From a virus: 64,000 bases of DNA. Shown here piece by piece: positions 2,848 to 53,458 of this stretch. Both the position numbers and the translations under genes were made by a program. The DNA is taken from positions 2,258 to 66,257 of IMG/VR virus record IMGVR_UViG_3300045936_000225. One strand, given 5' to 3'. Within the stretch, counting starts at the first letter, position 1. The number at the start of each line of letters is the position of its first letter. The notes under the pieces are model-generated. The model had not been told where the DNA came from. It saw only the letters and a list, made by a program, of their open reading frames with translations, and did not search any database.

Positions 2848-2850
2848 TCG

Positions 2851-7671: not shown

Positions 7672-7697
7672 CAATTCACAGTAAGGAATGGCCCAAG

Positions 7698-17051: not shown

Positions 17052-17315
17052 ATGACTGACCTCGCAAACCACGTCCGCTCCTCTCTCGAGATGAGGCTGA
17101 CATTCCTCAAGAACCAGATCGGCCAGATCGCAGCTCTGACCGCAGGCCTTCCTGCAATGGAAGCTGAAGCTGCCGAAATCGAGGCCACACTAACCAACGT
17201 AGACAAAGACGTGAAGGTGGAGATTCCGATCGCGAAGCGCGAAATCGCGGTGGAGCCGCGCGGCCCGGTGATTCTGGAGTCGCCTGTCGTAGAGGAGCAG
17301 CCGATTGAACCTTGA
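17052..17315 (+). CDS. small hypothetical protein
   Basis: GAGGA Shine-Dalgarno. Confidence 0.4.
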   Translation: MTDLANHVRSSLEMRLTFLKNQIGQIAALTAGLPAMEAEAAEIEATLTNVDKDVKVEIPIAKREIAVEPRGPVILESPVVEEQPIEP

Positions 17316-17802
17316 GCTGATTCGCACTTCGTACATGCGAGACGCCACGCTGGGTTGGCTTATCGCCGGCGACTTGCGCATTGCAACTCTGGAGGAGCCG
17401 TGGATTCCTGATCCGGACGGTCCAGGCGGACAGCGCAGGGAAGGAGCCTTGCACGAATCGTGCGTTCCTGATGGCACGTATCAGCTGCTGCCATTTGACG
17501 GCACGCGCTTCAAAGGTGTGCACGCTCTGGTGAATCACAGCCTCGGTGTCTACTACTCGGAAGCGGACAAGCCTGCAGGTCAGAAGTGGGGTCGTAGCGC
17601 GATCCTGATTCACAACGCCAACAGCACAGCGAACATCCTAGGCTGCATCGCTGTCGGTCTGCGTCACGGCACTGAGCAAGGCGTGCCATGGGTGTACAAT
17701 TCAGTAGATGCTTTCACCAGGTTGAAGGCGTTGCTTGGCCGCGAGAAGCATGAGCTGATCATCCGCCCTGTCAGCGGAACTGCAGAGAGGATTCTGAATT
17801 GA
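17305..17802 (+). CDS. YkuD/L,D-transpeptidase-like fold protein (possible peptidoglycan-active enzyme); tentative
   Basis: Motif AILIHNANSTANILGCIAVG has His then Gly-Cys in LDT-like order, but the spacing is shorter than the canonical motif. GAGGAG Shine-Dalgarno and TTG start. Confidence 0.35.
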   Translation: MNLELIRTSYMRDATLGWLIAGDLRIATLEEPWIPDPDGPGGQRREGALHESCVPDGTYQLLPFDGTRFKGVHALVNHSLGVYYSEADKPAGQKWGRSAILIHNANSTANILGCIAVGLRHGTEQGVPWVYNSVDAFTRLKALLGREKHELIIRPVSGTAERILN

Positions 17803-17957
17803 AGAAGATCATCCTGATCATCGCGTTATCGCTCGGTGCCTGCAACACCACGAAGGACGGCATTCGCTATGATGATAGCGCTGGCGTGCCTCCTGGGTAT
17901 GAGGATCTTTGCAAGCGCGAGCCTGAGGCTGCGGAGTGCGGAGGCAAGCAGCCGTGA
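17799..17957 (+). CDS. small lipoprotein (52 aa), o-spanin-like; not in ORF track
   Basis: GAGAGGA Shine-Dalgarno 7 nt upstream of TTG. Signal peptide MKKIILIIALSLGAC with a lipobox-like LGAC. The mature part carries Pro and Cys residues. TGA overlaps the next start (GTGA). Confidence 0.4.
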   Translation: MKKIILIIALSLGACNTTKDGIRYDDSAGVPPGYEDLCKREPEAAECGGKQP

Positions 17958-18361
17958 GAATGGATGACCTCCACAACGTTCAGCGCCTGATCAATCGCGC
18001 CGTTGAGTATCGCGAGGATTACGATCAGTATGGACTGATCGAGCACTGGACCGAGGCCGGTGCTTTTGGCGATTGCGAGGACTATGCCATTCGCAAACTT
18101 CGTGTTTTGCTTCTGGCTGGTTGGGACATCAAGAAGCTGCGCCTGTGCTTCTGCTGGGTGGACTTCAAGGCGCCGAAGCAAGGTCATGCGGTGCTGATCG
18201 CAGAGCACAACGGCAAGTTGTACGTTCTCGACAACAATGCCGATCACGTGTATTCTGTTGCTCAGCGCCCGAACTATATCTGGGGATCCTGTCAAGTGGA
18301 AGGTGGCTCACGTGCGTGGGCCAAATGTAGTGAAGTGTTTCCCAGGTACGACCTGGAATGA
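17954..18361 (+). CDS. transglutaminase-like cysteine peptidase (BTLCP / peptidase C93-like)
   Basis: GDCEDYA motif (Cys), downstream GHAVL (His) and VLDNN (Asp) form a Cys-His-Asp triad in the typical order. GGAGG Shine-Dalgarno. Confidence 0.55.
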   Translation: MRMDDLHNVQRLINRAVEYREDYDQYGLIEHWTEAGAFGDCEDYAIRKLRVLLLAGWDIKKLRLCFCWVDFKAPKQGHAVLIAEHNGKLYVLDNNADHVYSVAQRPNYIWGSCQVEGGSRAWAKCSEVFPRYDLE

Positions 18362-18375
18362 TGGAGGTAGATGAC

Positions 18376-18588
18376 ATGTCCGTGCTTTCGACGATCAACA
18401 ACAACAAGACGAAGATCACCGGTGCATTGCTGGTGGCATTCGGCGTTCTGCAGACCCAGTCCGAGCAGATTCGTTCCCTACTCACACCGAACATGTTCGC
18501 CGGTTTCACCATCGTGGTTGGCGTTGCGGTCGCCGTTCTCGGCTTCCTCAACAGCGCCGCGTCCACGCCACCGGAGGGCCAGAAGTGA
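18376..18588 (+). CDS. small 2-TM membrane protein (class II holin-like)
   Basis: 70 aa with two hydrophobic helices (ITGALLVAFGVL; MFAGFTIVVGVAVAVLGFL). GGAGG Shine-Dalgarno 8 nt upstream. Confidence 0.45.
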   Translation: MSVLSTINNNKTKITGALLVAFGVLQTQSEQIRSLLTPNMFAGFTIVVGVAVAVLGFLNSAASTPPEGQK

Positions 18589-18938
18589 TGCTCACCCAGA
18601 AGCGAATGTACATGGCCGTCTGCGTCATGGCGATGCTCGTCATGACTGCCTGCGCGGCTCTGGGAGTGCCGAAACCCGAGACGTGGAACCAACGAGTCGT
18701 CGCAGCGTACTCGTCAGTCACAGCAGCTCGCGAGACGGCCACCATCCTGGTGAACCGCGACAAGCTCAGCGCAGCGGACGCCCAGAACGTGCAGAATACG
18801 CTCAACGAAGCTCGCAAGGGCATAGAAGTGGCGGAAGCGCTGTACAAGCTCAAACCGGCAGACGGTGAGGACAAGCTCGTTTCGACGCTGCGAATCCTCC
18901 AGGCCGCACAAGCCTATCTGGCAGGGGTGCAGAAGTGA
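18588..18938 (+). CDS. secreted or lipoprotein-like protein with signal peptide
   Basis: N-terminal MAVCVMAMLVMTAC|AALG (signal peptide or lipobox). TGATG overlap. Confidence 0.4.
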   Translation: MLTQKRMYMAVCVMAMLVMTACAALGVPKPETWNQRVVAAYSSVTAARETATILVNRDKLSAADAQNVQNTLNEARKGIEVAEALYKLKPADGEDKLVSTLRILQAAQAYLAGVQK

Positions 18939-28953: not shown

Positions 28954-29663
28954 GCGGCAAAGAAGGATTGCTGTCAAGGCTCAAGTACAATCTTGAGCCG
29001 ATCACGGACGCGACTGTGAATGTCGGCAAAGGCATCGCCATGCCGATCGCTCGTATGATGAGTGGTCGAAGCAGCGAAGGAATCATCACGCCGCTAGGCT
29101 TCTCTCCAGAGACTGGCACGTTCAATCCTCAAATCGTTCACGACATCAAGAGCCTCTGGAACAAGGAGTCTCGTGACGAGACGTCTCGCTTTGATCAGCA
29201 GCTTCATGACGACTGGGGCGTCGGCTACTCGGGCTCTGCCGAGAATGGCGACTTCGACAGCGACGCTGACATGGCCCAGTTCGTCGGCAATTTCGTGCCG
29301 ACTCCTGCAGGACTTCCGAAGCTTGCCTCCTATCTGCCCAAGGCCGGCGGACTGCTTGGCAAGATCGCCAGAGGGACTGCCCACGCCGTCGATACTGCTG
29401 CCGACTTTGCCATGCCTGCGAAAGCCTCTGGCCGCAAAGCTGCCGACTATGCAGCGGACACTGGTCGCGGCCTTTTGATGGGCTCTGGCTTGCTCGGCGC
29501 CACGACCGCCGGCGGTGCAGCCTACGGAGCGATGCGCGGCCCTCCAGAAGTCAGCGCCGATGAATGGATGAATGCCTTTCACACCTTCCTGAAGGAAGGA
29601 GATATGGACGCCGCCGAAGGTGCCCTTGACGCATACTACGAAGCCCAGGCGAGGTCGCGATGA
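28950..29663 (+). CDS. internal virion protein
   Basis: ATGA overlap. Confidence 0.45.
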   Translation: MSGKEGLLSRLKYNLEPITDATVNVGKGIAMPIARMMSGRSSEGIITPLGFSPETGTFNPQIVHDIKSLWNKESRDETSRFDQQLHDDWGVGYSGSAENGDFDSDADMAQFVGNFVPTPAGLPKLASYLPKAGGLLGKIARGTAHAVDTAADFAMPAKASGRKAADYAADTGRGLLMGSGLLGATTAGGAAYGAMRGPPEVSADEWMNAFHTFLKEGDMDAAEGALDAYYEAQARSR

Positions 29664-31330
29664 GCGGTTTTCTCAAGAAGCTCGGTGAGTCTGCCGAGAA
29701 TTCGGCGAGCAAAGGCAGGGCTGTTGAAGCTGACTGGACCGGCAATATTGAGACGCTTCGCAAGGAAGCCCTTGCACGCGTAAAGCCGGGGAGTAGCCGC
29801 CGCGCCGCTCCTGCAAGCCCAGTCACCACGGCGATGAAAGGCAAGCTTCGCCAGATCCACGCACCGAGCACCAAACCGAAGGAAGGCATCAATCCGCGGC
29901 GGGAGGCCCAGCGCGATCTTGCTGCAGCTCAGAGAAAGATCGCTTATGCTGATTCCATGGATGCTCAGCCGCGCGAGTTCGAGTACTTCGCTGACCTCGA
30001 CAAGTTGAAAGGCTTCAACGATACATTCGGCATGCCATATGGTGATGCTTACATCGAAGCTGCCGAGCGCTCACTGCGCAACCAGCTTGGCAAGGTGCCG
30101 GAAGCGAATCCTCTATTCACACGCGCAGCAGGTGACGAGTTCTATGTTTCTGGCGATGATTCGAGCATGATCGAGTCGGCCCTGCAGCGCGTCAGCCGTG
30201 ACCTGAATCGTGGCGTCACTATCGATCGAGGCCCTCTCGGCAAGCACACCGTCGCCGGTGTCGGTTCGCTCAAGTACGGCAAAGGTCGCAACCTGGATGA
30301 AGCTGACGCAGCTCTTCGTAGCGACAAGACGAAGTGGAGTGAGATCGATCAGCGCACGGGTCGCAGGCATGGCGACGCTCGCTCCGACATGAGCGGCGCC
30401 CAGCACTTGTACGAGTACGAGGACCCTGAGTTGGACTGGCAGCACATCGGGTTCAAGCGTGGCGGCCTTGCGACCATCGGCAACTATCTCGCTGCATACG
30501 AGGCAGGCGAACGCCCTCGTGATGCGATGACGCTTGCCGATCAATACCCCGACGCCTTTGAAGGCGAATACGAGGATGGTGACGAATTCCTCGGTGAGGA
30601 TGACGAGTACGAATACTATGCATGTGGCGGCCAAGTACAGCACTTCTTCCTCGGCGGGATAGGCAAGAAACTCAAGAAAGGAATCAAGAAGGTCGGGAAG
30701 GTTGCCGGCAAGATCGCGAATGCACCTGGCAAGGCACTGAGCAAGATTCCTGGGGTCAAGTCGATCGCGAAGGTGGTAGCGAAAGCTGCACCGGCTCTCG
30801 GCTTCATTCCTGGTGTTGGCACGGTGGCCGGTGGATTGATCGGCGGTATCGCCGGCAACATCGCCTCCGGCGGCAAGACCTCAGGATTCCTGCGAGGTGC
30901 TTTGTCAGGCGCTTCCGGCGGTGTCGGTGGCGGCATCGCAGGTAGCGTTGCCAGCAAACTTGGTGGCGGAACCCTTGCCAAGCTTGCAGGGACGGCGCTG
31001 GGGGATATAGCGTCAGGCGCGATGCAAAGGGCTGGCGCCAAGCTGCTCAAGGACCCTTCCGGGAAATCTCTGACGCCGGAAGAGCTGCAGGCCGTTCAGT
31101 CTCAGCAGGCTCAAAGAGCGCAGGCTACGTTGCCGCAGCCTGCGAGTATCGGCACCATGAACAATGCCGCGGATCAGAGAACGTCAGCTCTACAAGCGGT
31201 CAGTCAGGCACCGGCCAATCAGTTCGCCCAGAACTATCAGCCGGCACCTCCTGCTCCAGTAGTCCCTGGGTCGAACTCCCAGGGACTGCTGAGCATGATC
31301 AAGCAGCAGCAGGCGGCTCGGGCGGCTTGA
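29660..31330 (+). CDS. internal virion/ejection protein with C-terminal glycine-zipper membrane region
   Basis: C-terminus reads GGIGKKLKKGIKK ... GFIPGVGTVAGGLIGGIAGNIASGG ... GGVGGGIAGSVAS. Confidence 0.5.
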   Translation: MSGFLKKLGESAENSASKGRAVEADWTGNIETLRKEALARVKPGSSRRAAPASPVTTAMKGKLRQIHAPSTKPKEGINPRREAQRDLAAAQRKIAYADSMDAQPREFEYFADLDKLKGFNDTFGMPYGDAYIEAAERSLRNQLGKVPEANPLFTRAAGDEFYVSGDDSSMIESALQRVSRDLNRGVTIDRGPLGKHTVAGVGSLKYGKGRNLDEADAALRSDKTKWSEIDQRTGRRHGDARSDMSGAQHLYEYEDPELDWQHIGFKRGGLATIGNYLAAYEAGERPRDAMTLADQYPDAFEGEYEDGDEFLGEDDEYEYYACGGQVQHFFLGGIGKKLKKGIKKVGKVAGKIANAPGKALSKIPGVKSIAKVVAKAAPALGFIPGVGTVAGGLIGGIAGNIASGGKTSGFLRGALSGASGGVGGGIAGSVASKLGGGTLAKLAGTALGDIASGAMQRAGAKLLKDPSGKSLTPEELQAVQSQQAQRAQATLPQPASIGTMNNAADQRTSALQAVSQAPANQFAQNYQPAPPAPVVPGSNSQGLLSMIKQQQAARAA

Positions 31331-31487
31331 CATCCTCCGCCTCGACGGGAGGCGGACCCTTCGTTGGTGGCTTGATGATGCGACCTTCGTCATCCATCAT
31401 CGGAGCCGACTTGATCATGTACCACGTCACGAAGATCATCACAACGATGACGATCGACGCGCCCACAGCCAACAGGCCGCGGATCAT
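31299..31487 (-). CDS. small N-terminal-TM protein with Pro-rich tail, translationally coupled to the SPFH gene
   Basis: ATGA overlap with the SPFH stop. TM segment LLAVGASIVIVVMIFVTWYMI, then KPPTKGPPPVEAEDVKPPEPPAAA. Confidence 0.4.
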   Translation of the reverse strand: MIRGLLAVGASIVIVVMIFVTWYMIKSAPMMDDEGRIIKPPTKGPPPVEAEDVKPPEPPAAA

Positions 31488-32488
31488 CGCGGCGGCGTCC
31501 CGGAGGGCAGAGTCACGATGCCGCCTGCCGCCGTGAGTGGCAGGTATTCCGACACCTTGATTCCATTCCAACGCTCTGCTTCGATCTTGTCAGCGTCAGC
31601 GTGCGTCTGTTCGATCACCAGCTGACGGAGCTTGATCTCGGTCTCCAGGTTCTGGGCAACCAGTCGGTTATAATCTGAGATACCCTGACCTTCCGCCCTC
31701 TTGGCTTCTGCGCGTAGCAAGGCAGCTTCCTTGTCGCCCTGAGCCGTGGCGATGTTGGCCTGTGCACTTGCTTCCGCTGTAATCTTCTTGGCGCGCTGCT
31801 CCTGCTCCACACGATCGGCATCAGCCTTTGCCTGAGCGACCTTCTGCTGCGCCTCCATCGTGTCCTTGATTCGCTGATCGAAGGAGTCGTCCCAATCCCA
31901 GTTGGTCAGGTTGACCTGGGTGATGGCAACAGGATATTCCTTGAGCTTGGCGCTGGCAGCAGCCAGAGCGTCAGTCGCAATCTTGTTCGCGCTGCGTGCC
32001 AAGTCGAAGATCGTGTACTTGCCTACTTCAGCCTTGAGAGCTTCGTATGCGGTGTTGTTCACCAAATCTTCGAGCACGGATCTGTTTGGATATTTCGTCA
32101 CAAGATCCATGATCTTGGCCGTGTCGTACCTCCAAGCAACCTTGGCGCTCAATCCGAGCGTTTGATTGTCGCTAGAGATCGCACCCTTTGTGCCGACTTC
32201 GATGACGACGTCCTGCGTGACTGGCTTGGAACTTGCCGTCTCGAAATGCGAGAACATCGGCATTTTCCATTGCATGCCAGGGCCGTAGTCCTGCTTCGAA
32301 ATCCTGCCGAGCGTGACCTTGACTGCACGCTCATCCGGACTGATGATCTCGAAGCTACCGAAAATCAGCAGTAGCAGGATGAACCCGCCGACGCAAAGTG
32401 ACGTCAGCTTGAACATCCACAGAATCCTCGCCTTCTGGTGAGCTGCTTCGGCCGCACGCTGAGCAGCCGCCTCTTCTAGATAACCCAT
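31484..32488 (-). CDS. SPFH / band-7 (HflC/stomatin-like) membrane protein
   Basis: N-terminal TM, an SPFH core, and a long A/E/Q/K-rich coiled-coil C-terminus typical of HflK/C and stomatin. Confidence 0.7.
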   Translation of the reverse strand: MGYLEEAAAQRAAEAAHQKARILWMFKLTSLCVGGFILLLLIFGSFEIISPDERAVKVTLGRISKQDYGPGMQWKMPMFSHFETASSKPVTQDVVIEVGTKGAISSDNQTLGLSAKVAWRYDTAKIMDLVTKYPNRSVLEDLVNNTAYEALKAEVGKYTIFDLARSANKIATDALAAASAKLKEYPVAITQVNLTNWDWDDSFDQRIKDTMEAQQKVAQAKADADRVEQEQRAKKITAEASAQANIATAQGDKEAALLRAEAKRAEGQGISDYNRLVAQNLETEIKLRQLVIEQTHADADKIEAERWNGIKVSEYLPLTAAGGIVTLPSGTPPR

Positions 32489-32515
32489 CTTGAACTCCTT
32501 CCCGTGGTGGTTGAA

Positions 32516-32875
32516 CTATTCCGACTTGTCGGCTCGCGTCTGTGCAGCCTCGTTGCTGTACCGGAGACCTTCGTACCGCTTGCTGAGCTTCGCGATATTG
32601 GCGTTGAGCGTTTCCTCCCTGCTGATGCCAAGGCCCTGCCGCAGACCTTCCATGTAGAACTCCAGGTCGCCGAGTTCCTCGACGATGTTGTCCCGGTCCA
32701 CTTCCTTGTTGTAGATCGCGACCTTCTTGACCGCATCCAGGAGCTCGCCTGCCTCGCCGCTGACACCCACGGCCATATGCAGCAGGTGAGTGCTCTGCGG
32801 CGTCAGGTCAGCGATGATCGCGGCGCCGGACTTGGCGAGCACGCTCACCATCTCTGCGTGATTGATCTGGCTCAT
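32516..32875 (-). CDS. MazG-like nucleotide pyrophosphohydrolase
   Basis: EAGELLDAVKK ... EELGDLEFY motifs. Confidence 0.6.
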   Translation of the reverse strand: MSQINHAEMVSVLAKSGAAIIADLTPQSTHLLHMAVGVSGEAGELLDAVKKVAIYNKEVDRDNIVEELGDLEFYMEGLRQGLGISREETLNANIAKLSKRYEGLRYSNEAAQTRADKSE

Positions 32876-32936
32876 CGGTAGCTCCCCTTGACCCGGCCAT
32901 CAGTTCCGAACATCATCGCGCCTGCATTGATGTCAT

Positions 32937-33299
32937 TCATCCCGTACGACCGTCAATGCGGATCTGCGGGCCACGCACCGCAAGGTGAGGTTGCGCCGGC
33001 GTGACGCTGATTGGCGGCATCGGACCTGCATCCTCGTTCACGCGGTCGATATATCCGAGCGTGCGCGCAAGGTCTTCACGCAGCAAGCCAGTTTCGCGCC
33101 TTGCCGACTCTACGTCCTTGCCCAGCCCTTCTGCGATCTTCACCGATCGATTCAGCGCTCCCTGCAGATCATTGTTCTCCTGCTCTAGATGAGCGATGCG
33201 CTTCGCTGCCGCATCCTCGACTGCCTCCAGTTCCGAGATGCGGCACTTCAGGAGCTCCACATCCACTTCCTGGGGTTTCAGAATTCTGTTACTCGCCAC
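32937..33299 (-). CDS. coiled-coil hypothetical protein
   Basis: ORF only. Confidence 0.4.
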   Translation of the reverse strand: MASNRILKPQEVDVELLKCRISELEAVEDAAAKRIAHLEQENNDLQGALNRSVKIAEGLGKDVESARRETGLLREDLARTLGYIDRVNEDAGPMPPISVTPAQPHLAVRGPQIRIDGRTG

Positions 33300-33492
33300 G
33301 ACCTTCTCCTTGTTTGTTTGCTAAATCAACCATCAACTCGATCTTGGTGATGTACATCTGCCCACGCCACATGTAACCTTCCAATCGCGTCTGATCGTAC
33401 ATATTGATCTGCGTGATTGGTTTGCCGAAACGCTTTGCCAGCCAGAATTTCCACTGCGGCTGCAGGGAGAACTTCATGTCTGGATTTGGCAT
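33289..33492 (-). CDS. small hypothetical protein
   Basis: ORF only. Overlaps the upstream gene by 11 nt. Confidence 0.3.
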   Translation of the reverse strand: MPNPDMKFSLQPQWKFWLAKRFGKPITQINMYDQTRLEGYMWRGQMYITKIELMVDLANKQGEGRGE

Positions 33493-33695
33493 CAGACCCT
33501 CTGGCGGTATTCTTGATACATCTGGATTCGATCATCCAGAATCGCGTCCTTGCCCTGAGCCAGCCGCGCTACGACGTCAGCGAGGTCCAAGGCAGATCTG
33601 TACCGCCTTCCCTTGGCTTGCTCCCATTCAAGCTGTTGCTTCAGTCTTAACACCTCGGCCTTATGCTCTTCAATTGGAATCGTGTCATTGCTCAT
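33492..33695 (-). CDS. small hypothetical protein
   Basis: Coupled overlaps with neighbours. Confidence 0.35.
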   Translation of the reverse strand: MSNDTIPIEEHKAEVLRLKQQLEWEQAKGRRYRSALDLADVVARLAQGKDAILDDRIQMYQEYRQRV

Positions 33696-34576
33696 GATAT
33701 GTCATCCTTGTCTCGGAACCACTTGAAGATCGGCTGGCGCGGCTTCTCTTTGACGCCTGTCACCGCGAAGTGCTTGAAGGTGAACAGCCGTCCGAGGTAC
33801 TTGTCGCGGTTGTCCCAGACTTCCCTTCTGAGAGCGTCGTCAAAGCCGCTGCCGACGTCGACCTCTCTGCCGCTTTTGGTTCTGGCAATGAGAGAGCCAA
33901 GCGTGTCTTTGCCGACCATGTTCTCTTTGTGGCCAGAACGCTTCGTATAGCCTCGCTCATCTTTGAACGCTTCGTTGGCATTGTGCATCTGCTCCTTGAA
34001 GCCGATGATCGTGGCCTCTTCATCCACCCACTGCTTCAGCTTCATGAGGTACTGCTCCCTCATGGTGCTGCGGCCATTCTTGTATGGTGCAGAACCGGAA
34101 CGAGCGATCACGCCCTCGAAACCATGCAGAAGAGCTTCGCGTTCGTATGCCTCCAGCTCTTCCACGCTGTTCACTATCTCCTGAAGGAGCAATGCGACGC
34201 TTGGGAATTTCGAATCCCAGACGACGCGCTCCAGGTGCCCGTATCGCCGCGTGAATGGTGACTTGGCTTGAAGCTGATAGTCGAAGACGTGGAAGGTGAC
34301 GTCAGGCTCGCCTTCGATGCTCATGACGCCGCTGGACGTCTTCTGCATCAGATTCTTGTCATTGATCGGCCCGACGCAGAGCTCGCCATCAAACCCTTCG
34401 GGAAGTCCCTTGAAGAGCTCCTGCGTGAACTTGTTGCGGATCGGCTTCAGGCTGCGACTCAGCAGCTGGCCGCCCTGCACGGTTGCTCGGATGCCATCAA
34501 GCTTGTAGCTGACGTACAGAGGAAAGCGCAGCACCTTAAGATCTTCAATGGTGGCTGCGAGCATTGGCTTGAGCAT
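33692..34576 (-). CDS. ATP-dependent DNA ligase
   Basis: KxDG adenylation motif (SYKLDGIRA), FDGELCV, EGVIAR and LMKLKQW motifs. 294 aa, T7-ligase size. Confidence 0.85.
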   Translation of the reverse strand: MLKPMLAATIEDLKVLRFPLYVSYKLDGIRATVQGGQLLSRSLKPIRNKFTQELFKGLPEGFDGELCVGPINDKNLMQKTSSGVMSIEGEPDVTFHVFDYQLQAKSPFTRRYGHLERVVWDSKFPSVALLLQEIVNSVEELEAYEREALLHGFEGVIARSGSAPYKNGRSTMREQYLMKLKQWVDEEATIIGFKEQMHNANEAFKDERGYTKRSGHKENMVGKDTLGSLIARTKSGREVDVGSGFDDALRREVWDNRDKYLGRLFTFKHFAVTGVKEKPRQPIFKWFRDKDDIS

Positions 34577-34911
34577 CAGATCATCCTCGCGAAATCTGGT
34601 TTCGGTGCATCTTCACCCTTGGTGATTCGATGCTCCTTGATCCTGTCACACTTTTTCGCGAGCGTATTCATGAACATCTTGTACATCTTCAGGTCAACCA
34701 ACCTGGCTGATGCTTCGCGAAATCCTTGGCGGCCAGACTCAATGCAGCCTAGTTGAAGCGCATTCTTCAGAGTTCGATTCTCCTGCATCAGCGCTTCTTT
34801 AAGAGCTTGATCGCCCTGCACTTTCTCAATGATATGCGTTCCCACCGCTCGATGGGTGTGCATAATCATGTTGTAGACGGCTGTATCGCCAGCCCAATAG
34901 ATCTCGATCAC
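34576..34911 (-). CDS. hypothetical protein
   Basis: ATGA coupling. Confidence 0.4.
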   Translation of the reverse strand: MIEIYWAGDTAVYNMIMHTHRAVGTHIIEKVQGDQALKEALMQENRTLKNALQLGCIESGRQGFREASARLVDLKMYKMFMNTLAKKCDRIKEHRITKGEDAPKPDFARMI

Positions 34912-35258
34912 AGCATCTCCGGAAACCCGTTCTTCACGGATACCTCGTTGAACTTCTCGCGCACTGCTTCGGCGAGATTGATCCCCTCCCGCTGCGCGAT
35001 CAGGTCGAGATAGAGGTAGACGTCAGCAATCTCCTTGCGGAGTTCGACGCGCAGCTCTTCCTCGGAGACTGTGTTGCCGACAAGACCATCGCGCACGCGA
35101 TTGAGCTTCTTGACGACGTTGCAGAGCTCGCCGGCCTCGCCTGCCAATGCAACTGCCCAGTCCGACAGGGACCATTCAACGAGCCCATCCGGATGCCAGC
35201 GAAGACAACGAGCCAGATTGACGCGACTGATGTTTGCGATTGAGTCGTTGTTCACCAC
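34908..35258 (-). CDS. MazG-like NTP pyrophosphohydrolase (second copy)
   Basis: EAGELCNVVKK ... EIADVYLYL motifs. Confidence 0.55.
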   Translation of the reverse strand: MVNNDSIANISRVNLARCLRWHPDGLVEWSLSDWAVALAGEAGELCNVVKKLNRVRDGLVGNTVSEEELRVELRKEIADVYLYLDLIAQREGINLAEAVREKFNEVSVKNGFPEML

Positions 35259-35737
35259 TGATATCCTTCTGCGTCCAGGTAGACTTGAGTGTGTCGGCGC
35301 AGATGATCCTTCGTGACCTTCTGACCGATGCCGATGTGCGTGGCTCGGATGAAACCTCGCCAGCAGAAATCACTAGCAGGGGTCCCTCGGTGCGCATCGA
35401 GCTGCGTGAACCGATGCCAGGTCTGAGGCCGGATATAGCCGTGCTCGAACTGAGTGAGTGGCGGCCCGCTGATCCAGACGTACATCGGAAGCTCAGGCTT
35501 ACACTCGTGGATCTGTTGCACGCCTCCAACCCGAGGTACGTTGTCTCGGTGCCAGTTTGGGATGCACGGGAACTGCCGCGGCATCAGCATGTGCACCTTG
35601 ACATCGAAGACGAAGTTTCCTGCATCATCCGGAAAGGTCTTCAGGATTGGCATGACGTCTGGCATGAGGTTGTTGACCACAGCCCAAGGTGCTGATCGCA
35701 GCCCGCAGTGCTGCTTGCTCCAGTCAATCGTGATCAT
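35252..35737 (-). CDS. hypothetical protein
   Basis: Internal ATG overlaps the upstream stop (ATGA). The N-terminal extension of the track ORF was judged spurious. Confidence 0.4.
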   Translation of the reverse strand: MITIDWSKQHCGLRSAPWAVVNNLMPDVMPILKTFPDDAGNFVFDVKVHMLMPRQFPCIPNWHRDNVPRVGGVQQIHECKPELPMYVWISGPPLTQFEHGYIRPQTWHRFTQLDAHRGTPASDFCWRGFIRATHIGIGQKVTKDHLRRHTQVYLDAEGYQW

Positions 35738-35919
35738 GATGGAGTCGCCTGTGCTGCGATTTTCTCGCGTGTTTCTTTGACGAAGTACTCTGCGCCGATG
35801 ACGCTGATGCATCGGCATTCATCTTTGGTGCCTTTGGACTCGCAGACGCTGAAGTGGCCTTCAATGTACAGCTCCAAGGGCTGGCCGTTGTAATGATTGG
35901 TCAGAACCAACCGGATCAT
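35734..35919 (-). CDS. small Cys-containing protein
   Basis: ATGA overlap at both ends. Confidence 0.35.
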   Translation of the reverse strand: MIRLVLTNHYNGQPLELYIEGHFSVCESKGTKDECRCISVIGAEYFVKETREKIAAQATPS

Positions 35920-36296
35920 GAGGGCTTGCCCTGTTGCGGATCCACCATCATGCCGCCGCGCTCTGCGCGACAGACTGCGCACTGGCACCCCTGAGCCTGG
36001 CAGACCTTGACGCCGTCCATGCGCTTCTCGATCTCCTCAAGAAGCTCCTTGACAGAGATTTTGAAGTGCTGTGCAAGGGAGTATACGACGGTCGCGGCCG
36101 AGTCCTTCAGAAGCTCGTCATGATGACCCTCCGCTTCCTTCGGCGTCATTCCTGCAGCCATCATGGCTTTCGTGGCATGTGCCGGCTGCTGATAAACAGC
36201 GAGCGCTGCAGCACCGTCTTCCGAGACGTGCATGATGATGATGGGATTTACGACTAGCGTCACGGCATCACTCAGTATTCTTATCGTCACAGTCAA
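35916..36296 (-). CDS. hypothetical protein with C-terminal CxxCxC
   Basis: ORF only. Confidence 0.4.
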   Translation of the reverse strand: MTVTIRILSDAVTLVVNPIIIMHVSEDGAAALAVYQQPAHATKAMMAAGMTPKEAEGHHDELLKDSAATVVYSLAQHFKISVKELLEEIEKRMDGVKVCQAQGCQCAVCRAERGGMMVDPQQGKPS

Positions 36297-42273: not shown

Positions 42274-42950
42274 GCCCTCGAAGTACGAACTTGAGTGGTG
42301 CCATCCACGACGCTCTTGTCGAAGCCGATCTTACGCGGCTCACCATACCCGGTTGGCCTGCAGAGTTCGGGCGGTCTAGTGCCATCAGGGATCAGTGACA
42401 CCAGCTTGTGGTGCTTCACGATCTCTGCGAGCGCCCTGACGTCGTCCATGCCACGGTGAGTCTGTTTGTATTCCTTGCCTGTGGTCGCCTTGTACAGCTC
42501 GATGAGCTTCATTCGGCGACCCCAGAGCGGGTCGAATTCCTGGACGGTACAGATGTTGTGGCGCGGCCACGGGAAGTCCTTGCAACCGCATCGCTCCAGC
42601 TCGCCGGCGAGCAATGCATGGTCGAAGGGAAGGTTGTGGCAGATCAGGCCGTCGGTGTCCTCGAAGAAAGCGATGATCTCGTCAAGGTGAGCTGCGAAAG
42701 CAGGCTTGCCGGCGAGATCGGCGTTCGTGATCCCGGTAATCCCGGTGATCTCAGGCGTGATCTGCTGTCCCGGATAGCACAGAAACTCCAACTCCGCGAG
42801 CTCGTTGCCGAACACGTCGACCTTCAAAGCCGCGAATTCAATGATGCGCGGCTGCAGGTCCTGCTTCGCATACGGATGCAGGGTCAGCCCTGTGGTTTCC
42901 GTGTCGAATATGATGGCCGTTTTGACGGCTGCGTCAACGATCGAATTCAT
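42270..42950 (-). CDS. dnaQ: DnaQ-like 3'-5' exonuclease (DEDDh)
   Basis: Exo I IIFDTETTGL, Exo II HNLPFDHALL, Exo III HRGMDDVRAL. ATGA overlap defines the start. Confidence 0.8.
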   Translation of the reverse strand: MNSIVDAAVKTAIIFDTETTGLTLHPYAKQDLQPRIIEFAALKVDVFGNELAELEFLCYPGQQITPEITGITGITNADLAGKPAFAAHLDEIIAFFEDTDGLICHNLPFDHALLAGELERCGCKDFPWPRHNICTVQEFDPLWGRRMKLIELYKATTGKEYKQTHRGMDDVRALAEIVKHHKLVSLIPDGTRPPELCRPTGYGEPRKIGFDKSVVDGTTQVRTSRA

Positions 42951-44653
42951 CGACGAATCCTCTTGCTGTGACGAGTCCACAAGACTGCTCCGTCCCAGAT
43001 ATGGTCGGCGCCCCATTCGTCTGCGCTGGCTAGATCTGGGAAGAATCCGCTTCCGTTTTTGTTGGCCGAGGTATTGCACAGGAGGCCTGGACCGCCGCTC
43101 GCAGCCGCATAACCTTGGAGGATCGAACGGACGATTGCACAGTCCGAAAATCCGACCGTCTGGATCCTGGCAGTATTGTCGATGTGCGTGATAGCAGGGA
43201 ATTTACCTGCGCATTCCGGCCTGATGACGTGGTCGAACAGCATGTATGGGTCCGGCGTCCCAGGATGGAAGAGAGCAGGTGCATCTTCTTCGAGGACAAT
43301 CGGCGCCACAGGTCTCCAGTGTTCACGGTTCTTGTCCATGTTGAGGGTGTTCTTGTTGGGGGACTCTGTAGCAGCCATCAGCAGGCTGCGATGACCGAGT
43401 GCACGCGGCCCGATCTCTGCCCGGCCATGAAGCACGCAAACGTAATCGTCCGGATGCTCCCAGAGCCAGCGCCCGAGTTCGTGCGGCTGCATCGGAGTCT
43501 TCGTAAACTTCGGATGCGCGCTGTACGGCATCTGGTCAACAACCAGCTGAGCAGGCGACATACGCGGCCCGCAGTACACGTCCCAGTCAAGCGCCGTCTT
43601 CTCGCCAGCAGCCCATCTGGCCGCAGCTGCTGCACCGATGGCGCTGCCCGAGTCATTCGGGCAAGGAGGAACCCAGACGTCGATGTCCATGCGCCGGATC
43701 TGGCTGTTCCACTTAATGTTCAAGGCCGAGCCGCCGACGAACACGAGGTTCATCGTTTTGCCATGTTTCTCCAGCCCTTCGACGATCTTGTCGCCCATCC
43801 ACTGATGGATGCTGCGAAGTAAATCTGCATCAGTGATGCTCTCTTCCGCTGTCGCGTAGAGAACGAGCTGCATGAAGGCATTCTCCGGCCTGCAGTCATT
43901 AAATGCGCTTTCCACTCGCTTGTCTGGATAGACTTCCGGTCTGCGCCCATCACTAAGGATGTGATGAGCGTTCTCGCAAGCCTGCAGGACTGCGTCAGAA
44001 ACCTTGCCGTGACCGATCCATGACATCAGCTTGCCTGGCCAGTCGCGACGACTGATCGACTTTGTGTAATCGCCGTGACGAAGGCGCTCCATGCCTGCTG
44101 TCTTGAAAGGTCCTGCATAGTATCCCATGATGCCATACAGCGTGCCGTACAGGTTGAAGAGGGCTTTGCCGCCGGTGATGCCTTTCTGAGGATCCACCTG
44201 ATAGAGCATCGGACGCGTTCCGCCGTCCCACATCAGGACGTCGCAGCGCTCTCCCGCGTATGGCGACATTAGGTACGCACCAAGTACGTGACCCGTGATA
44301 TGCGGCGTACTGCCAACGACCGTACCGAGATCTAGGCGCAGAGTCTCGCGCGCGAAGTTCGATAGCGTGACGAACTGGAATTCGATGTCTGGCCAGTAGC
44401 CTGCAACGTCCAGCTCGATTGGCCGGAAGAGCTTGCCGGCACGCCATCCGTCGATGCACAGAACGTCGCTGTTGTGGAACTCGAATCCCTCGCTGTCCAG
44501 CGCTTTGCGCACGGCAGAAAGCGATTCCGCCTCTGTGTACCGAGGATTGTTGCCGAATTTCTCCAATTCCAGGCTCCACTGGAGCTTGCCGGTTGCGTCG
44601 ATCATCGCCACTGCGGCATCATGCGTGAACTTCACGCCAACAAAACGAGTCAT
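42947..44653 (-). CDS. NodU/CmcH-family carbamoyltransferase
   Basis: N-terminal FTHDAAVAMID (HDxA motif of the Kae1-like domain), C-terminal HIDNTARIQTV (as in HVDGTARVQTV), ~570 aa. GAGGTG Shine-Dalgarno. Confidence 0.7.
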   Translation of the reverse strand: MTRFVGVKFTHDAAVAMIDATGKLQWSLELEKFGNNPRYTEAESLSAVRKALDSEGFEFHNSDVLCIDGWRAGKLFRPIELDVAGYWPDIEFQFVTLSNFARETLRLDLGTVVGSTPHITGHVLGAYLMSPYAGERCDVLMWDGGTRPMLYQVDPQKGITGGKALFNLYGTLYGIMGYYAGPFKTAGMERLRHGDYTKSISRRDWPGKLMSWIGHGKVSDAVLQACENAHHILSDGRRPEVYPDKRVESAFNDCRPENAFMQLVLYATAEESITDADLLRSIHQWMGDKIVEGLEKHGKTMNLVFVGGSALNIKWNSQIRRMDIDVWVPPCPNDSGSAIGAAAAARWAAGEKTALDWDVYCGPRMSPAQLVVDQMPYSAHPKFTKTPMQPHELGRWLWEHPDDYVCVLHGRAEIGPRALGHRSLLMAATESPNKNTLNMDKNREHWRPVAPIVLEEDAPALFHPGTPDPYMLFDHVIRPECAGKFPAITHIDNTARIQTVGFSDCAIVRSILQGYAAASGGPGLLCNTSANKNGSGFFPDLASADEWGADHIWDGAVLWTRHSKRIRR

Positions 44654-44943
44654 TTGGTCACCTCTTCCAGCATCGCCGAGTAGACCATCGCGTCGTGCGC
44701 ACTGTCCTTGTGGCCGCCGCGATGGAGGTTGTTTGAGTAGCGCTGAAGCTTGAGCAATGCTGCCAGCCACAGCGAGAAACGGTTCCAGTCATCCGCCGTC
44801 TTCAAGTCCGGCAAGCCGTCTGGGAAGAACGCCTGCAGGATGGCTCCGAGTTGCAGGTAAGTGTCGCCATACGCCGCGTTGCGCACGCGGAATGTAGCTG
44901 CGCCTTCTTCCAGAATCTCAGGAGCGCGTCGTTCTTCAGTCAT
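44650..44943 (-). CDS. hypothetical protein
   Basis: ATGA-coupled upstream of the carbamoyltransferase. Confidence 0.4.
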   Translation of the reverse strand: MTEERRAPEILEEGAATFRVRNAAYGDTYLQLGAILQAFFPDGLPDLKTADDWNRFSLWLAALLKLQRYSNNLHRGGHKDSAHDAMVYSAMLEEVTK

Positions 44944-46661: not shown

Positions 46662-47378
46662 TTACTTTACTCCTCGCATCTTGTCGACGATCTTCAGGAG
46701 CTTCCCGCGCGTGAGCAGATCAGGGAAGTGCTCGAGAGCGAATGCCTCGATCTCTGCGAAATAGTCGCGCGGCTTCTCGAAGATGAAGTCCTCTGCCCAA
46801 GGCCACACCTTCAGGACTTCGTCAACCATCAGGTTCATCACCATCTGATATTCGTCTTGGGTGCGGCCACCGGTGCGCGATCTCGCGAGATCAGCGAATG
46901 AGCGAAGATTGTACTTCGCCACGATGTTCGTCTCGACATTGCCGGGTAGTACTGCACGAGCATCTTCCGGTGCATGGCCGCGACGGATCAGATACTTGTA
47001 GAGCTCCTGCGTGCGAGCGTTGTGGTCATTGACCACCTCCGTCGCCGAAATGTCCTCCTTGAACTTCCTCGGCATGACGAATCCGAACTGCGACATGTCA
47101 TTCACGCGCATCGACTGCTGCGCATATGACGCGTGCCTCGAACGCACGAACTGATGCGTGAAGTTGCGGCTCACACCCTCGATCATGAAGATCAAGTCGC
47201 CGAACTCGTGTGAAGAGCGGATGGTGTTGGCGATGTACTTCAGCTCTTCGAGCTTGCGCTCTTCTGGCCAAGCACGGATGGCGTCGAGCAATCCAGGCGA
47301 CATGTTGAGTCGCGTGCTCTTGGTGAAGATGAGGATTTCCTTGGCCTCATGCGTTGCGTAAATGAGTGTGACTTTCAT
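46662..47378 (-). CDS. thyX: flavin-dependent thymidylate synthase
   Basis: ThyX signature RSRHASYAQQSMR (RHR-x7-S). AGAGGAAA Shine-Dalgarno. Confidence 0.8.
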   Translation of the reverse strand: MKVTLIYATHEAKEILIFTKSTRLNMSPGLLDAIRAWPEERKLEELKYIANTIRSSHEFGDLIFMIEGVSRNFTHQFVRSRHASYAQQSMRVNDMSQFGFVMPRKFKEDISATEVVNDHNARTQELYKYLIRRGHAPEDARAVLPGNVETNIVAKYNLRSFADLARSRTGGRTQDEYQMVMNLMVDEVLKVWPWAEDFIFEKPRDYFAEIEAFALEHFPDLLTRGKLLKIVDKMRGVK

Positions 47379-48295
47379 CGCGACAGTTTCCTCTGATATT
47401 TGTCGCCCGACATGAGCGACTTGATTGCGGCGATATCGCCGATAAGATCGTCGAGCAGGATGTTCCTCCAAGTGGCGAACCTGCCCAGCGAATAGATGTT
47501 GAATTCTTCAGATAGCCGGTGGATTCCCTCGCGGCGACGCTTGTCATCGATCGGCGCGATCTTGCCGTATTTCTGGAACGTGTCCGTCTGCAGGATGAGG
47601 CCGCGAATGCCGAATACCTGTTCCAGGAACTCAGCTTCGTCAGTCTTCTCGAAGGCGCTGCTCGCAGTCGTCTCCGGAATGACACTCTCGGCGATCAAGG
47701 TGTTTCCTGTGATCGTCGCTCGATACAGCGTCAACTTCGGGTCCGGGAAGTAGATCGTCTGGAAAGTGTCGCAGTCAGGGATCTTGTATCGTCGCACCTG
47801 GATAGGTGCGAAATTGAAGTTCTGGCCGACGATCTCGAGATTGAAGTCACCGAGCGCGGCCAGGAGCGTCGGCATCGGTATCGTCGAGACTACCGGAAGT
47901 CCTGATCGCCATCCATCAAACGTCGATCCCCAGACAACGCGGTCGCCGACATTCTCAAGCAGCCGCGCGACGAGATCGTCTGGGGCGACGTAACGCTCGG
48001 CAGGCTCAAGGTTCCAGATGCTGCGATCTATGATGCGCCCGGCCACCTTATAGGCATAGCGATTGGCGTGCCGAATGCTCGGCTCCACGAACATGCCGCC
48101 AGAATAGATCGCCTTCCGCACTGTGATCTTGCGGAATGGAATGCCTGTGAGCGCACTGACCTGTTCTCCACGAAATCTCAGCACGGCCTTGTGATTGTCG
48201 CGTGCAGTGGGCGATGCCTCGTGTATCTTCGCCTTTGGCCATGCGTGCGCAGCGATCAGCCCCGACAATCCTGCGCCGATAATGATTGGTGTCAC
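47375..48295 (-). CDS. FAD/NAD(P)-binding Rossmann oxidoreductase
   Basis: N-terminal IIIGAGLSGLIAAH (GxGxxG). ATGA-coupled to thyX. Confidence 0.55.
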   Translation of the reverse strand: MTPIIIGAGLSGLIAAHAWPKAKIHEASPTARDNHKAVLRFRGEQVSALTGIPFRKITVRKAIYSGGMFVEPSIRHANRYAYKVAGRIIDRSIWNLEPAERYVAPDDLVARLLENVGDRVVWGSTFDGWRSGLPVVSTIPMPTLLAALGDFNLEIVGQNFNFAPIQVRRYKIPDCDTFQTIYFPDPKLTLYRATITGNTLIAESVIPETTASSAFEKTDEAEFLEQVFGIRGLILQTDTFQKYGKIAPIDDKRRREGIHRLSEEFNIYSLGRFATWRNILLDDLIGDIAAIKSLMSGDKYQRKLSR

Positions 48296-51423: not shown

Positions 51424-52380
51424 TCAGAACTTGTCGTCGTCCCCGGAGCTTGCAGCGCCGCCGGCTGAGCTACTACCCGACTCCGCGCCTGCAAGGTCAA
51501 CCTTGACCTCGTTGCCCTTCACCGAAGTGTAGAAGGCTGCACCCATGTCGAAGATCCACTTCTTCTGGACAGGGCCGTCGAGTGCCACGCTCACGCCGTA
51601 CCAGCTGCCCTGGTCATTCGACTCCTTGACCGTGGTGATGCGGTAGACGTAGCCGAACGTTGGCGCGATCGCCAAGGTGCCGGCGCCGGTCTTGATGGTA
51701 CGTTCCCGCATCATCGCGTTGAAGAGCTTGCTCTTCTTGATCTGCGTGGAAGCGAGGCTCATCAGCACGCGGCTCGGCAGCTGGTCAGGATCTTCCTCGT
51801 CGAGGATCAGGCCGTAGTGCAGCCGGTTGTCGGCGAGACGGTCGCACATGTCCTTGTCGACCTTGCCGTCCTTGATGTAGTAATCGCGGCCCTCGAAGCT
51901 GACAAGCTCGCCATTGTCACGCTGCCGCGCGACGTCGGCTTCGCTGACCTCGCCCTTGAAGCCGCCACCGGCCTTGCGCGCTCCCCAGCGAAGCAGCTTG
52001 CGCTCGAAGTAGCACGGGACGAACAGGAGTCCGGTCTTGCCGTCGTAGAGCTTGCCGGTCACGCTGTTGTACAGCTGGCCCTGCTTGGCCTCCTCGATGT
52101 ACTTGCCGTCCGATTCGTCCAGCTCCGGGCTGAGCGGCTGGAGGACCTTGAGGAATGGGATTGCGACATCGGCGCCGGACATCGCGTCGGTACCAGCACC
52201 TGCGTACTGGTCCATGCTGAACTGTTCAGCTGCTGCGACTGCCTGTGCAGCGGGTGGCGCCTGAGTTGCTACCGCCTTTGTGGGCTGGGCTGCCGGCTTG
52301 GCCGGTGCTGCTGGTTTTGCTACCGCCTTTGTGGGCTGGGCTGCCGGCTTGGCCGGTGCTGCTGGTTTTGCTGTTGCCAT
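51424..52380 (-). CDS. putative gp2.5-like ssDNA-binding/annealing protein with repeated AKPAAPAKPAAQPTKAV N-terminus (tentative)
   Basis: Acidic C-terminal tail ending SGDDDKF (cf. SSB DDDIPF). GGAGA Shine-Dalgarno. Contains the 2 x 51-bp tandem repeat. Confidence 0.4.
   Translation of the reverse strand: MATAKPAAPAKPAAQPTKAVAKPAAPAKPAAQPTKAVATQAPPAAQAVAAAEQFSMDQYAGAGTDAMSGADVAIPFLKVLQPLSPELDESDGKYIEEAKQGQLYNSVTGKLYDGKTGLLFVPCYFERKLLRWGARKAGGGFKGEVSEADVARQRDNGELVSFEGRDYYIKDGKVDKDMCDRLADNRLHYGLILDEEDPDQLPSRVLMSLASTQIKKSKLFNAMMRERTIKTGAGTLAIAPTFGYVYRITTVKESNDQGSWYGVSVALDGPVQKKWIFDMGAAFYTSVKGNEVKVDLAGAESGSSSAGGAASSGDDDKF
52268..52369 (-). repeat. perfect 2 x 51-bp tandem repeat encoding AKPAAPAKPAAQPTKAV x2
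   Basis: Read directly from the sequence. Confidence 0.85.
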
Positions 52381-52462
52381 TGATATCTCCAAGTCAAGGA
52401 TGATGTTGCGGCACCCTCGTAACCGCGTGGAACTCTATTATAACTCCGCCACGGCGCAACCG

Positions 52463-52672
52463 CTAGGGCGGAATTGTCACGACGTCAATGCTAACTGCCA
52501 CATATCGCGGCCCCGCACCCGCTTGCTTGGGATGGGACACGCGAATAGTTGAAACGATGCTCTGAGGGTGATCGCGCTCGTAAGCCTCGATCGCCCCGGC
52601 AATGCGCATCTCAAGACCTTCAAGATGCGGGTTTCGGATTGCTGAAGACAAACTTGCTCCTTTGATCTTCAT
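52463..52672 (-). CDS. small hypothetical protein
   Basis: ORF only. Confidence 0.3.
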   Translation of the reverse strand: MKIKGASLSSAIRNPHLEGLEMRIAGAIEAYERDHPQSIVSTIRVSHPKQAGAGPRYVAVSIDVVTIPP

Positions 52673-52777
52673 GCGTCCATACGGCACGGAAGATCGCCAG
52701 TGACAGCAGGCCGTCATACTTCGGCGCGCAGCAAGTAAGCTGCGAGCGGACATACGCGCGGATGATCGGATTCAGGC

Positions 52778-53458
52778 TCACTTCTTTTTCTTCTTGATCC
52801 GAGTGATCTTCGCGTTGTCATAGACGCGAACGTTGAAGAGATTCTCTGGCGGCATGACACCCGCCTCCACAGACTGCTTCGCCCAGCTCTTGAGCGTGCT
52901 CGGATGGACACTCATCTTGACGTCCGCATCGAATCCTGCCTTCTCCAGAGCCTTCTGCGCAGCCGCAACCTTCTCGTGGTCGCCAGCACCGAAACGGGAG
53001 GTGACCTCAGTCTTGATGACGTCACCGTGATTGTTCTCGACCATCCAGGCATAGGCGTCAGGCTTCTTCTCATCTGGGATGGAGATGTCGACGCCGCTAG
53101 TGATCTTGACCTCGATGTCGCCGCGAGTCACCTCGTTCATGCCGAGCTCGTGGAGCAGGTTGGGAAGGTCCTCCTGCTGTACGCGGCGAAGGGTGCTCTT
53201 CGCGCGTTCCAGCTCTTCTTCGAGGGAGTCGATGCGCGCCGTCTGCTCATCGGCATATCGGATGAGTTGGTCGAGGCGCTGCCCAGGATTCAGGTTCTGG
53301 GTTACTGGCGCTTGACGGACATGATCGATGGCAGCGCCGGTGGAGTAACGTTCGAGATCGGCGGCTGTTATCTCTTGCCAATCTCTCTTATCGGGTCGTT
53401 CGATGCTCGACGAGGCTTTACTCATCGCGGCTTCCTTCTGGTTATCTGCCCACGCCAA
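52778..53458 (-). CDS. hypothetical protein with KKKKK C-terminus
   Basis: ORF only. Confidence 0.45.
   Translation of the reverse strand: MAWADNQKEAAMSKASSSIERPDKRDWQEITAADLERYSTGAAIDHVRQAPVTQNLNPGQRLDQLIRYADEQTARIDSLEEELERAKSTLRRVQQEDLPNLLHELGMNEVTRGDIEVKITSGVDISIPDEKKPDAYAWMVENNHGDVIKTEVTSRFGAGDHEKVAAAQKALEKAGFDADVKMSVHPSTLKSWAKQSVEAGVMPPENLFNVRVYDNAKITRIKKKKK

Follow-up and report, generated by a model that had tools for sequence, protein, structure and literature searches.

Why would a phage carry a gene for an SPFH (Band-7) protein, and does the very small membrane-protein gene coupled to its 3' end belong to the same device? The question was raised by a 64,000-nucleotide (nt) stretch of viral DNA (IMG/VR record IMGVR_UViG_3300045936_000225, positions 2,258 to 66,257; hereafter the window, with coordinates counted from its first letter), in which a first-pass annotation, made from the letters alone, had noticed a 334-amino-acid (aa) SPFH protein followed by an ATGA-coupled, 62-aa transmembrane (TM) protein with a Pro-rich tail at a convergent operon junction. 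Our answer, to which we give a probability of roughly 0.5, is that the two genes constitute a phage accessory module in which an SPFH cage co-assembles with a TM mini-protein and regulates a component of the host inner membrane. The features of the locus are collected in Table 1.

By sequence and fold, the 334-aa product is a membrane-anchored SPFH protein of the prohibitin/HflK type. It matched Pfam Band_7 (PF01145) over residues 48-224 (79.5 bits against a cutoff of 23.6, E=4.1e-22) and phrog_200 over residues 24-318 (140.7 bits, E=1.3e-40), and a profile built from 22 homologues recovered prohibitin (2.6e-15), HflK (8e-14), QmcA (1.3e-11) and HflC (1.8e-11) from the PDB, as well as stomatin and erlin. 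The AlphaFold2 (AF2) model, with a mean predicted local distance difference test score (pLDDT) of 80, comprised an N-terminal helix (residues 2-43) that includes the TM segment, an alpha/beta domain (45-199) and a helix spanning residues 201-305, with low pLDDT at the C-terminal tail of the monomer. Foldseek matched this model at probability 1.0 to prohibitin, HflK/C, stomatin, erlin, flotillin and QmcA cage subunits (E 1e-13 to 1e-10), and also to many phage and giant-virus SPFH models. The SPFH fold that the first-pass annotation had proposed to look for is thus present. In both the Foldseek and the hmmsearch alignments, the long helix was placed on the coiled-coil regions of prohibitin and HflK/C, and it corresponds to the helix that builds the coiled-coil wall in SPFH cages. 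Few parts of the family are as well conserved as the C-terminal tail: across the 22 homologues Y315, P317, T319, A320, G322 and V325 are near-invariant and P328 is invariant, and by analogy with its relatives this tail may be an oligomerisation or cap segment. All 22 aligned homologues also possess a hydrophobic N-terminal segment, and the conserved ER-x-VKV motif puts positive charges after the TM helix, which blurs a positive-inside reading of the anchor. A lipobox, as the PHROG label 'lipoprotein' would imply, was ruled out for the window protein, in which residues -3 to +1 read TSLC.

The small open reading frame (ORF) downstream looks like a real gene, as judged from its codon usage and from a homologue in another phage-like locus. 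Its translation, MIRGLLAVGASIVIVVMIFVTWYMIKSAPMMDDEGRIIKPPTKGPPPVEAEDVKPPEPPAAA, opens with MIR and has a TM helix over residues 4-25, then a conserved juxtamembrane motif (W-x-MIKSAPMMDDEGRIIK) and an acidic, Pro-rich tail; 10 prolines fall in the 42-residue stretch (21-62) beyond a 17-residue hydrophobic core. Under a codon model trained on the long genes of the window, and over the part of the frame outside the overlap with the convergent gene, the frame scored 0.525 bits per codon, above 79% of equal-length pieces of real genes and above every piece from a non-coding frame; the remaining five frames at this position scored -1.09 to +0.15. Two other public assemblies carry the identical phage (100% over ~930-950 nt, a stretch that runs from the 3' part of the SPFH gene through the small ORF and across the junction), and gene callers predicted the 62-aa ORF in both. 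The Shine-Dalgarno sequence of the small ORF is weak, and because of the ATGA coupling it needs no separate one.

The homologue lies in a metagenomic locus that we call L192 (NCBI JAWVGZ010003832.1), which carries the SPFH homologue P0028. There, a 52-aa ORF that starts 8 nt past the SPFH stop is homologous to the 62-aa protein (BLASTP E=2e-8), with conservation at the end of the TM helix and in the juxtamembrane motif, which reads W-YMIKSAPMMDDEGRIIK in the window and W-MIERSPFIDDDGRIIK in L192; the two partners share the pattern W-MI[KE][SR][AS]P[MF][MI]DD[ED]GRIIK. By tblastx, the SPFH gene and the small ORF were all that L192 had in common with the 64-kb window. The L192 pair is also found at a convergent junction with a hairpin right after the small ORF. 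As an observation in its own right, the hairpin in L192 (4627-4670) is canonical, is followed by a T-run, and occupies the position equivalent to the window hairpin, likewise inside the convergent gene.

Beyond L192, the 62-aa protein stood nearly alone. It matched no Pfam, PHROG, NCBIfam or PADLOC family at E<=0.01, and a holin, spanin, Imm, Sp or Sie identity was rejected on the same searches; at E<=10 its sole match to a lysis or exclusion family was Rz1 (E=0.58), which fell on the Pro-rich tail and was judged to be noise. A word-indexed database search found no homologue, an alignment-based search returned the L192 protein only, and phmmer against 1.84 billion representatives matched only Pro-rich low-complexity sequence. 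Scans of viral contigs were empty for single-sequence queries with both proteins of the locus and for a two-sequence profile of the small protein. Neither the SPFH protein nor the 62-aa protein matched any family of the PADLOC-DB defence models at E<=0.1.

The pairing itself recurs. Close relatives of the SPFH protein form a clade of ~43 proteins (P0001-P0043), represented by 14 non-redundant loci, that is, 13 plus the window. We counted a small ORF as a partner under a strict criterion: at most 100 aa in length, with a TM helix starting within the first 15 residues and a start codon between -10 and +45 nt of the SPFH stop, the minimum length being 25 aa in the 14-locus test and 20 aa in the test on all loci. 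Such an ORF followed the SPFH gene in 7 of the 14 close-clade loci (the window, L189, L192, L033, L190, L193 and L035) and only 5 of 242 other long ORFs in the same loci (Fisher p=1.8e-7), an enrichment of ~20-fold over the local background. When all loci were considered, partners were present in 7/16 of the clade with at least 50% identity versus 7/148 of the distant, mostly Treponema, clade; set against the 10% background of a loose criterion, 7/16 corresponds to a binomial estimate of ~5e-4. The small ORFs of the seven positive loci start -4 to +41 nt from the SPFH stop, three of them in a 4-nt start/stop overlap (ATGA in the window, GTGA in L189 and in L035), and the one in L190 has its own AGGAG. 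Five of the seven partners begin with M-[ILT]-R and then a TM helix, as in L189 (MIRFIF...) and L190 (MIRVAV...).

In a neighbour-joining tree of the SPFH proteins, the partner-bearing genes include basal branches and the window's sister L189, and the partner-less genes make up three derived groups. This distribution is most simply explained by an ancestral SPFH/partner pair with about three losses. The first close homologues that were sampled (L001-L006) have non-membrane genes downstream of the SPFH gene; an early verdict that the pairing was due to chance was reversed because more of the close clade was sampled. Together, these comparisons, which rest on about 14 independent loci, suggest that the SPFH gene and its small TM ORF recur as a pair that is partly conserved in sequence within the close phage clade and that looks like a real two-gene membrane module. 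The tight linkage that the first-pass annotation had read from one locus is therefore backed, by codon usage, the L192 homologue and recurrence in the clade, more strongly than that annotation could know.

Several observations weigh against reading the pair as one module. The strict criterion was fixed after the data had been inspected, and under the loose criterion, applied to the whole family, 14/110 loci were positive against a 10% background, which is no enrichment. Half of the close clade has no partner, so the SPFH protein can function alone. Among the partner-less loci is L194 (Logan SRR12927082_68518, 1-4945), which shares the PolIII-alpha gene, a 174-aa gene and the SNF2 helicase gene with the window at ~50% amino-acid identity and has its SPFH gene at a comparable position, followed by a 255-aa DUF7873 gene in place of the small TM ORF and the convergent junction. 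Apart from the window-L192 pair, the partners have no significant sequence similarity to each other, and their tails vary from acidic and Pro-rich to basic or Ser/Thr-rich; because tail charges differ, the partners may not be one family or share one topology.

Outside the close clade the SPFH protein is divergent. Its close relatives, at 56-73% identity, all came from metagenomic sequence, either phage-like contigs of 65-106 kb or fragments. The nearest cellular relatives, at 30-41% identity, are mostly chromosomal Treponema proteins that NCBI names 'prohibitin family protein', with others in gut and rumen bacteria. These cellular proteins are full-length homologues that share the NWDW and YxPLTAAGG motifs with the window protein; they differ in being chromosomally encoded, in having lipoprotein-like N-termini (VNSC) and in lacking a conserved neighbour, and from their sequences the Treponema relatives look like exported lipoproteins. 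Among GenBank phages (50,697 records), megablast with the DNA of 29000-36000 gave no match and tblastn with both proteins at default stringency gave none either; at E<=10, tblastn recovered cultured-phage SPFH relatives of at most 29% identity. Clustering of neighbouring ORFs across 112 metagenomic or viral and 75 cellular loci revealed no other conserved partner, whether NfeD, a second SPFH gene or any other, and in the 112 related loci this clustering found no second Band_7 gene within ~2 kb of the SPFH gene.

How does the pair compare with known SPFH systems? NfeD proteins, which are recognised by an OB-fold domain at their C-terminus and may also carry a ClpP-like protease, are the classic operon partners of bacterial SPFH proteins; prohibitins and HflK/C scaffold FtsH-type proteases; and all solved SPFH proteins assemble into rings or cages. 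The window protein resembles prohibitin and HflK-HflC in its best profile and fold matches and in its layout of N-terminal TM anchor, SPFH domain, long coiled-coil helix and conserved C-terminal segment. It differs from them in being encoded by one gene rather than by a heteromeric pair of paralogues, and in scoring far under the HflC equivalog cutoff: an HflC orthologue was ruled out by NCBIfam TIGR01932 (45.3 bits versus 134.4) and by PRK11029 (20.6 versus 427). With a single SPFH gene and no adjacent paralogue, an HflK/C pair was rejected as well.

The likeness to SPFH-NfeD operons (QmcA-YbbJ, FloA-NfeD, PH1511-PH1510) is one of arrangement. In those operons, as in the window, the SPFH gene is tightly linked to a gene for a membrane-protein partner, here adjacent in the same operon through the ATGA overlap. 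The partners in the phage clade are different: they measure 27-84 aa, have a single TM helix, lack an NfeD/OB-fold or ClpP-like domain and sit downstream of the SPFH gene, and their sequences evolve very fast. An SPFH-NfeD pair was ruled out, since neither the window partner nor six analogous partners matched NfeD even at E<=10; the 62-aa protein is too short for an OB fold because only 37 residues follow its TM helix, ten of them prolines. The resemblance to SPFH-NfeD or HflK/C pairs that the first-pass annotation had pointed out therefore lies in how the operon is put together, with a membrane partner encoded beside an SPFH gene, and not in family membership. For QmcA-YbbJ, an SPFH-NfeD cage of 26 heterodimers is described (PMC13086221; PDB 8z5g), and by analogy the tight coupling of the phage genes is compatible with stoichiometric co-assembly.

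Other phages also carry SPFH genes. The phage SPFH proteins of PHROG 200 belong to the same domain family as the window protein, are likewise laid out as an N-terminal anchor followed by SPFH domain and coiled coil, and are likewise products of uncharacterised accessory genes; their carriers include the T4-like phages 44RR, Aeh1 and RB43, Vi01-like phages, the N4-like phage GIB1, Burkholderia phage CSP3, Faecalibacterium phage FP_Toutatis and jumbo phages. They differ from it in sequence (the identity limit for cultured phages given above) and in context: in none of the four cultured-phage loci inspected was a small TM partner seen immediately after the SPFH gene. Listings of SPFH/Band-7 genes in 44RR, Aeh1 and RB43 go back to at least 2006 (PMC1524935), and such genes are also reported in Vi01-like phages (PMC3220722, PMC10892097); the authors describing the gene in an N4-like phage call the reason for its presence unclear (PMC13239085), and for the prohibitin-family moron of CSP3 an idea connecting HflC, FtsH and lysogeny has already been raised (PMC10269572). 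In the searchable literature we found no functional study of a phage SPFH copy, in keeping with the first-pass view that its function is uncharacterised, and no description of a small TM partner. The SPFH gene of the window thus adds a new and divergent member to a phage family that is known but uncharacterised, and the recurrent mini-partner adds a new form to the scheme of an SPFH protein with a partner.

From these comparisons we propose how the module would work. The pair sits at the distal end of a replication and nucleotide-metabolism operon, and gene order suggests early or middle expression. By analogy with solved relatives, the SPFH protein would be expected to assemble with itself into a ring or cage that sits on the host inner membrane and fences off a membrane patch. 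The mini-protein, made by translational coupling, would most likely join this ring via its TM helix and juxtamembrane segment, acting like a minimal NfeD-type partner without being NfeD. During infection the module would then probably confine or regulate a component of the host inner membrane. An FtsH-type protease may be the leading candidate for this target, only because the nearest solved relatives, prohibitins and HflK/C, scaffold proteases of that type. In a bolder form of the proposal, which we regard as improbable, the SPFH protein and its dedicated partner would be a phage-made nanocage that protects the infection by capturing one specific membrane machine of the host, for instance FtsH or an effector of defence or abortive infection that acts on the membrane.

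Other explanations have to be set against a two-gene module. The SPFH protein could be a stand-alone product, and the 62-aa ORF an unrelated small membrane protein (holin- or antiholin-like, exclusion-type or toxin-like) that happens to occupy the same accessory hot-spot. We consider this unlikely, although most partners are not detectably homologous, their tails vary in charge and composition, half of the clade has none, the SPFH gene occurs in many contexts with no other conserved neighbour, and at some distant phage SPFH loci the small TM ORFs are placed upstream of the SPFH gene or at a distance of two genes instead of downstream. A shared hot-spot fits poorly with the window-L192 pair, which moves jointly between backbones that are otherwise unshared, with the ~20-fold enrichment, with 4-nt start/stop overlaps in three lineages and with a tree distribution consistent with ancestry; the window moreover has a separate candidate lysis cassette (17305-18938). 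In another account, the SPFH gene alone would be real and the 62-aa ORF a spurious frame in a GC-rich intergenic or overlap region. The empty word-indexed search, the low-complexity phmmer match, the weak Shine-Dalgarno sequence and the 32-nt overlap with the convergent gene would all be in line with a spurious frame; we hold it to be very unlikely given a codon score above every non-coding-frame window, an L192 homologue with a conserved motif, a positional enrichment that holds, and an ATGA coupling that makes a separate Shine-Dalgarno sequence unnecessary.

Two further accounts concern what the proteins act on. The phage protein might be a mimic of HflK/C that binds host FtsH and alters the degradation of phage or host substrates, as HflK/C do for lambda CII. 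Prohibitin and HflK, both scaffolds of FtsH-family proteases, are indeed the nearest solved relatives by profile, and the same idea has been voiced for the CSP3 moron (PMC10269572). The protein is not an HflC equivalog (45.3 versus 134.4 bits), however, and it has no paired second SPFH gene; the fold search did not discriminate SPFH subfamilies; and because no integrase or lysogeny gene was present among the window ORFs scanned, a rationale of the CII type is not evident. Mimicry of this kind therefore seems to us rather improbable, somewhat more so than the hot-spot account. We see only a slim chance that the module acts at the envelope, through superinfection exclusion, for example by blocking DNA entry of other phages, or through lysis timing and membrane stabilisation, with the inner membrane kept intact or energised until lysis. 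That argument is purely circumstantial: both products are membrane proteins from an early or middle operon, in the Vi01-like phage PhiSH19 the SPFH gene adjoins an annotated superinfection exclusion gene (PMC3220722), and a role in responses to membrane stress has been connected with cellular SPFH proteins (PMC8581546). Homology to known exclusion, holin, antiholin or spanin families was absent from the Pfam and PHROG searches, and no PADLOC defence model was matched. A two-gene module of SPFH cage and co-assembling mini-protein thus remains the reading that we prefer.

Table 1. Positions of the SPFH gene, the mini-protein gene and the surrounding junction features in the window.
Feature	Position	Strand	Basis
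SPFH/Band-7 gene, 334 aa, ATG 32488 to TGA 31484	31484..32488	-	ORF list, Pfam, PHROG, AF2, Foldseek
Strong Shine-Dalgarno sequence GGAAGGAG, 6 nt upstream of the SPFH ATG	32495..32502	-	sequence reading
SPFH TM anchor, residues 31-49, LCVGGFILLLLIFGSFEII	32342..32398	-	Kyte-Doolittle 19-residue mean 2.45
SPFH (Band_7) domain, residues 48-224	31817..32347	-	Pfam envelope 48-224; model strands/helices 45-199
Long continuous helix, residues 201-305 (~105 residues)	31574..31888	-	DSSP on AF2 model
C-terminal motif Y-L-P-L-T-A-A-G-G-I-V-x-L-P, residues 315-328	31505..31546	-	conservation across 22 homologues
62-aa single-pass membrane mini-protein, ATG 31487 to TGA 31299	31299..31487	-	ORF list
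ATGA start/stop overlap of SPFH gene and small ORF	31484..31487	-	sequence ...CCG CGA TGA / ATG ATC CGC
Hairpin, 13-14 bp core stem within an extended stem, no U-tract	31249..31298	.	inverted repeat I1
Convergent neighbour, 556-aa terminal gene of the structural/ejection operon (context, outside the module)	29660..31330	+	ORF list, PHROG and Pfam matches

The surroundings of the pair are those of a phage genome, which the window is. Profile matches on the plus strand include the large terminase, a tail fibre, a virion structural protein and DNA-ejection proteins, and those on the minus strand include PolIII alpha, an SNF2 helicase, DNA ligase, MazG, ThyX and a RepB-type primase. A MazG-like gene precedes the SPFH gene, and the 62-aa ORF follows it. 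With the plus-strand structural/ejection operon extending to 31330 and the minus-strand one to 31299, their terminal genes are convergent and overlap by 32 nt; the coupled gene pair and the convergent junction are just as the first-pass annotation had placed them. A hairpin directly after the stop codon of the small ORF falls within the last ~25 codons of the convergent 556-aa gene. Its folding energy is -29.9 kcal/mol (z -3.9) for the minus-strand RNA and -35.1 kcal/mol (z -7.0) for the plus-strand RNA, and a consensus terminator scan did not report it. It is likely to be a 3'-end or terminator structure of the minus-strand operon.

Some neighbouring genes deserve mention for their own sake. 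The convergent 556-aa protein contains a GGDEF-like domain at residues 110-224 (Pfam GGDEF, 28.6 bits versus a cutoff of 23.8), with NCBIfam GGDEF models under their cutoffs; it reads DLDKLKGFNDTFGMPYGD...RAAGDEFYV, in which AGDEF replaces GGDEF, and its Gly-rich C-terminal half matches tape-measure, tail-lysin and endolysin PHROGs. It may contain a nucleotide-cyclase-like domain within a probably ejected virion protein. The candidate lysis cassette on the plus strand, inside the structural operon, starts with a DUF5675 protein (17305-17802); next come a transglutaminase-like cysteine protease of the Peptidase_C93/BTLCP type (17936-18361) and two small TM ORFs, of 76 and 117 aa. Because this cassette is separate, the SPFH/mini-protein pair is unlikely to provide the main lysis genes. 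The replication operon on the minus strand encodes two MazG-like pyrophosphatases, a carbamoyltransferase, ThyX and Pam3 gp33/gp34-like proteins (32516-32875, 34908-35258, 42947-44770, 46662-47471 and 51424-53458), a set that could be a nucleotide or DNA-modification module.

A few other SPFH loci were distinctive. The phage-like contig L193 (JGI 3300082533 Ga0672938_0000060, 86.7 kb) encodes CsrA-like and TROVE (Ro60-like) proteins near its SPFH homologue, at 3176-3349 and 6510-7892. In the cultured Rhizobium phage V1VFA-S (L199, MT778838.1), two small TM ORFs of 47 and 37 aa abut the SPFH gene on its upstream side (1154-1410), a hint that among distant phages a small TM ORF may adjoin an SPFH gene in either order. 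The distant-clade loci L091, L095/L096, L085 and L016/L020 have, no more than ~10 nt from the SPFH stop, very short hydrophobic ORFs of 27-40 aa (such as MIKFLIGGIVVLAFNQFLLAVYLLRKHR) whose C-termini are basic; they come from a few rumen or gut and jumbo-phage contigs and make up two small sequence families of their own.

What would the module mean for the biology of these phages? Many genomes of phages and giant viruses have annotated SPFH proteins, and the literature reports no function for any phage copy. The close clade described here offers a compact and tractable two-gene module, an SPFH gene with its mini-protein of 30-80 aa. If the proteins do not interact, the window holds one more uncharacterised phage SPFH accessory gene. 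If they co-assemble, no smaller pair of SPFH protein and partner would be known, and the pair could serve to model client recruitment by SPFH cages, and the nanocage idea, if true, would amount to a previously undescribed host-takeover or anti-defence strategy with a minimal, NfeD-independent type of SPFH partner. The host target, once identified, would explain why phages carry SPFH genes.

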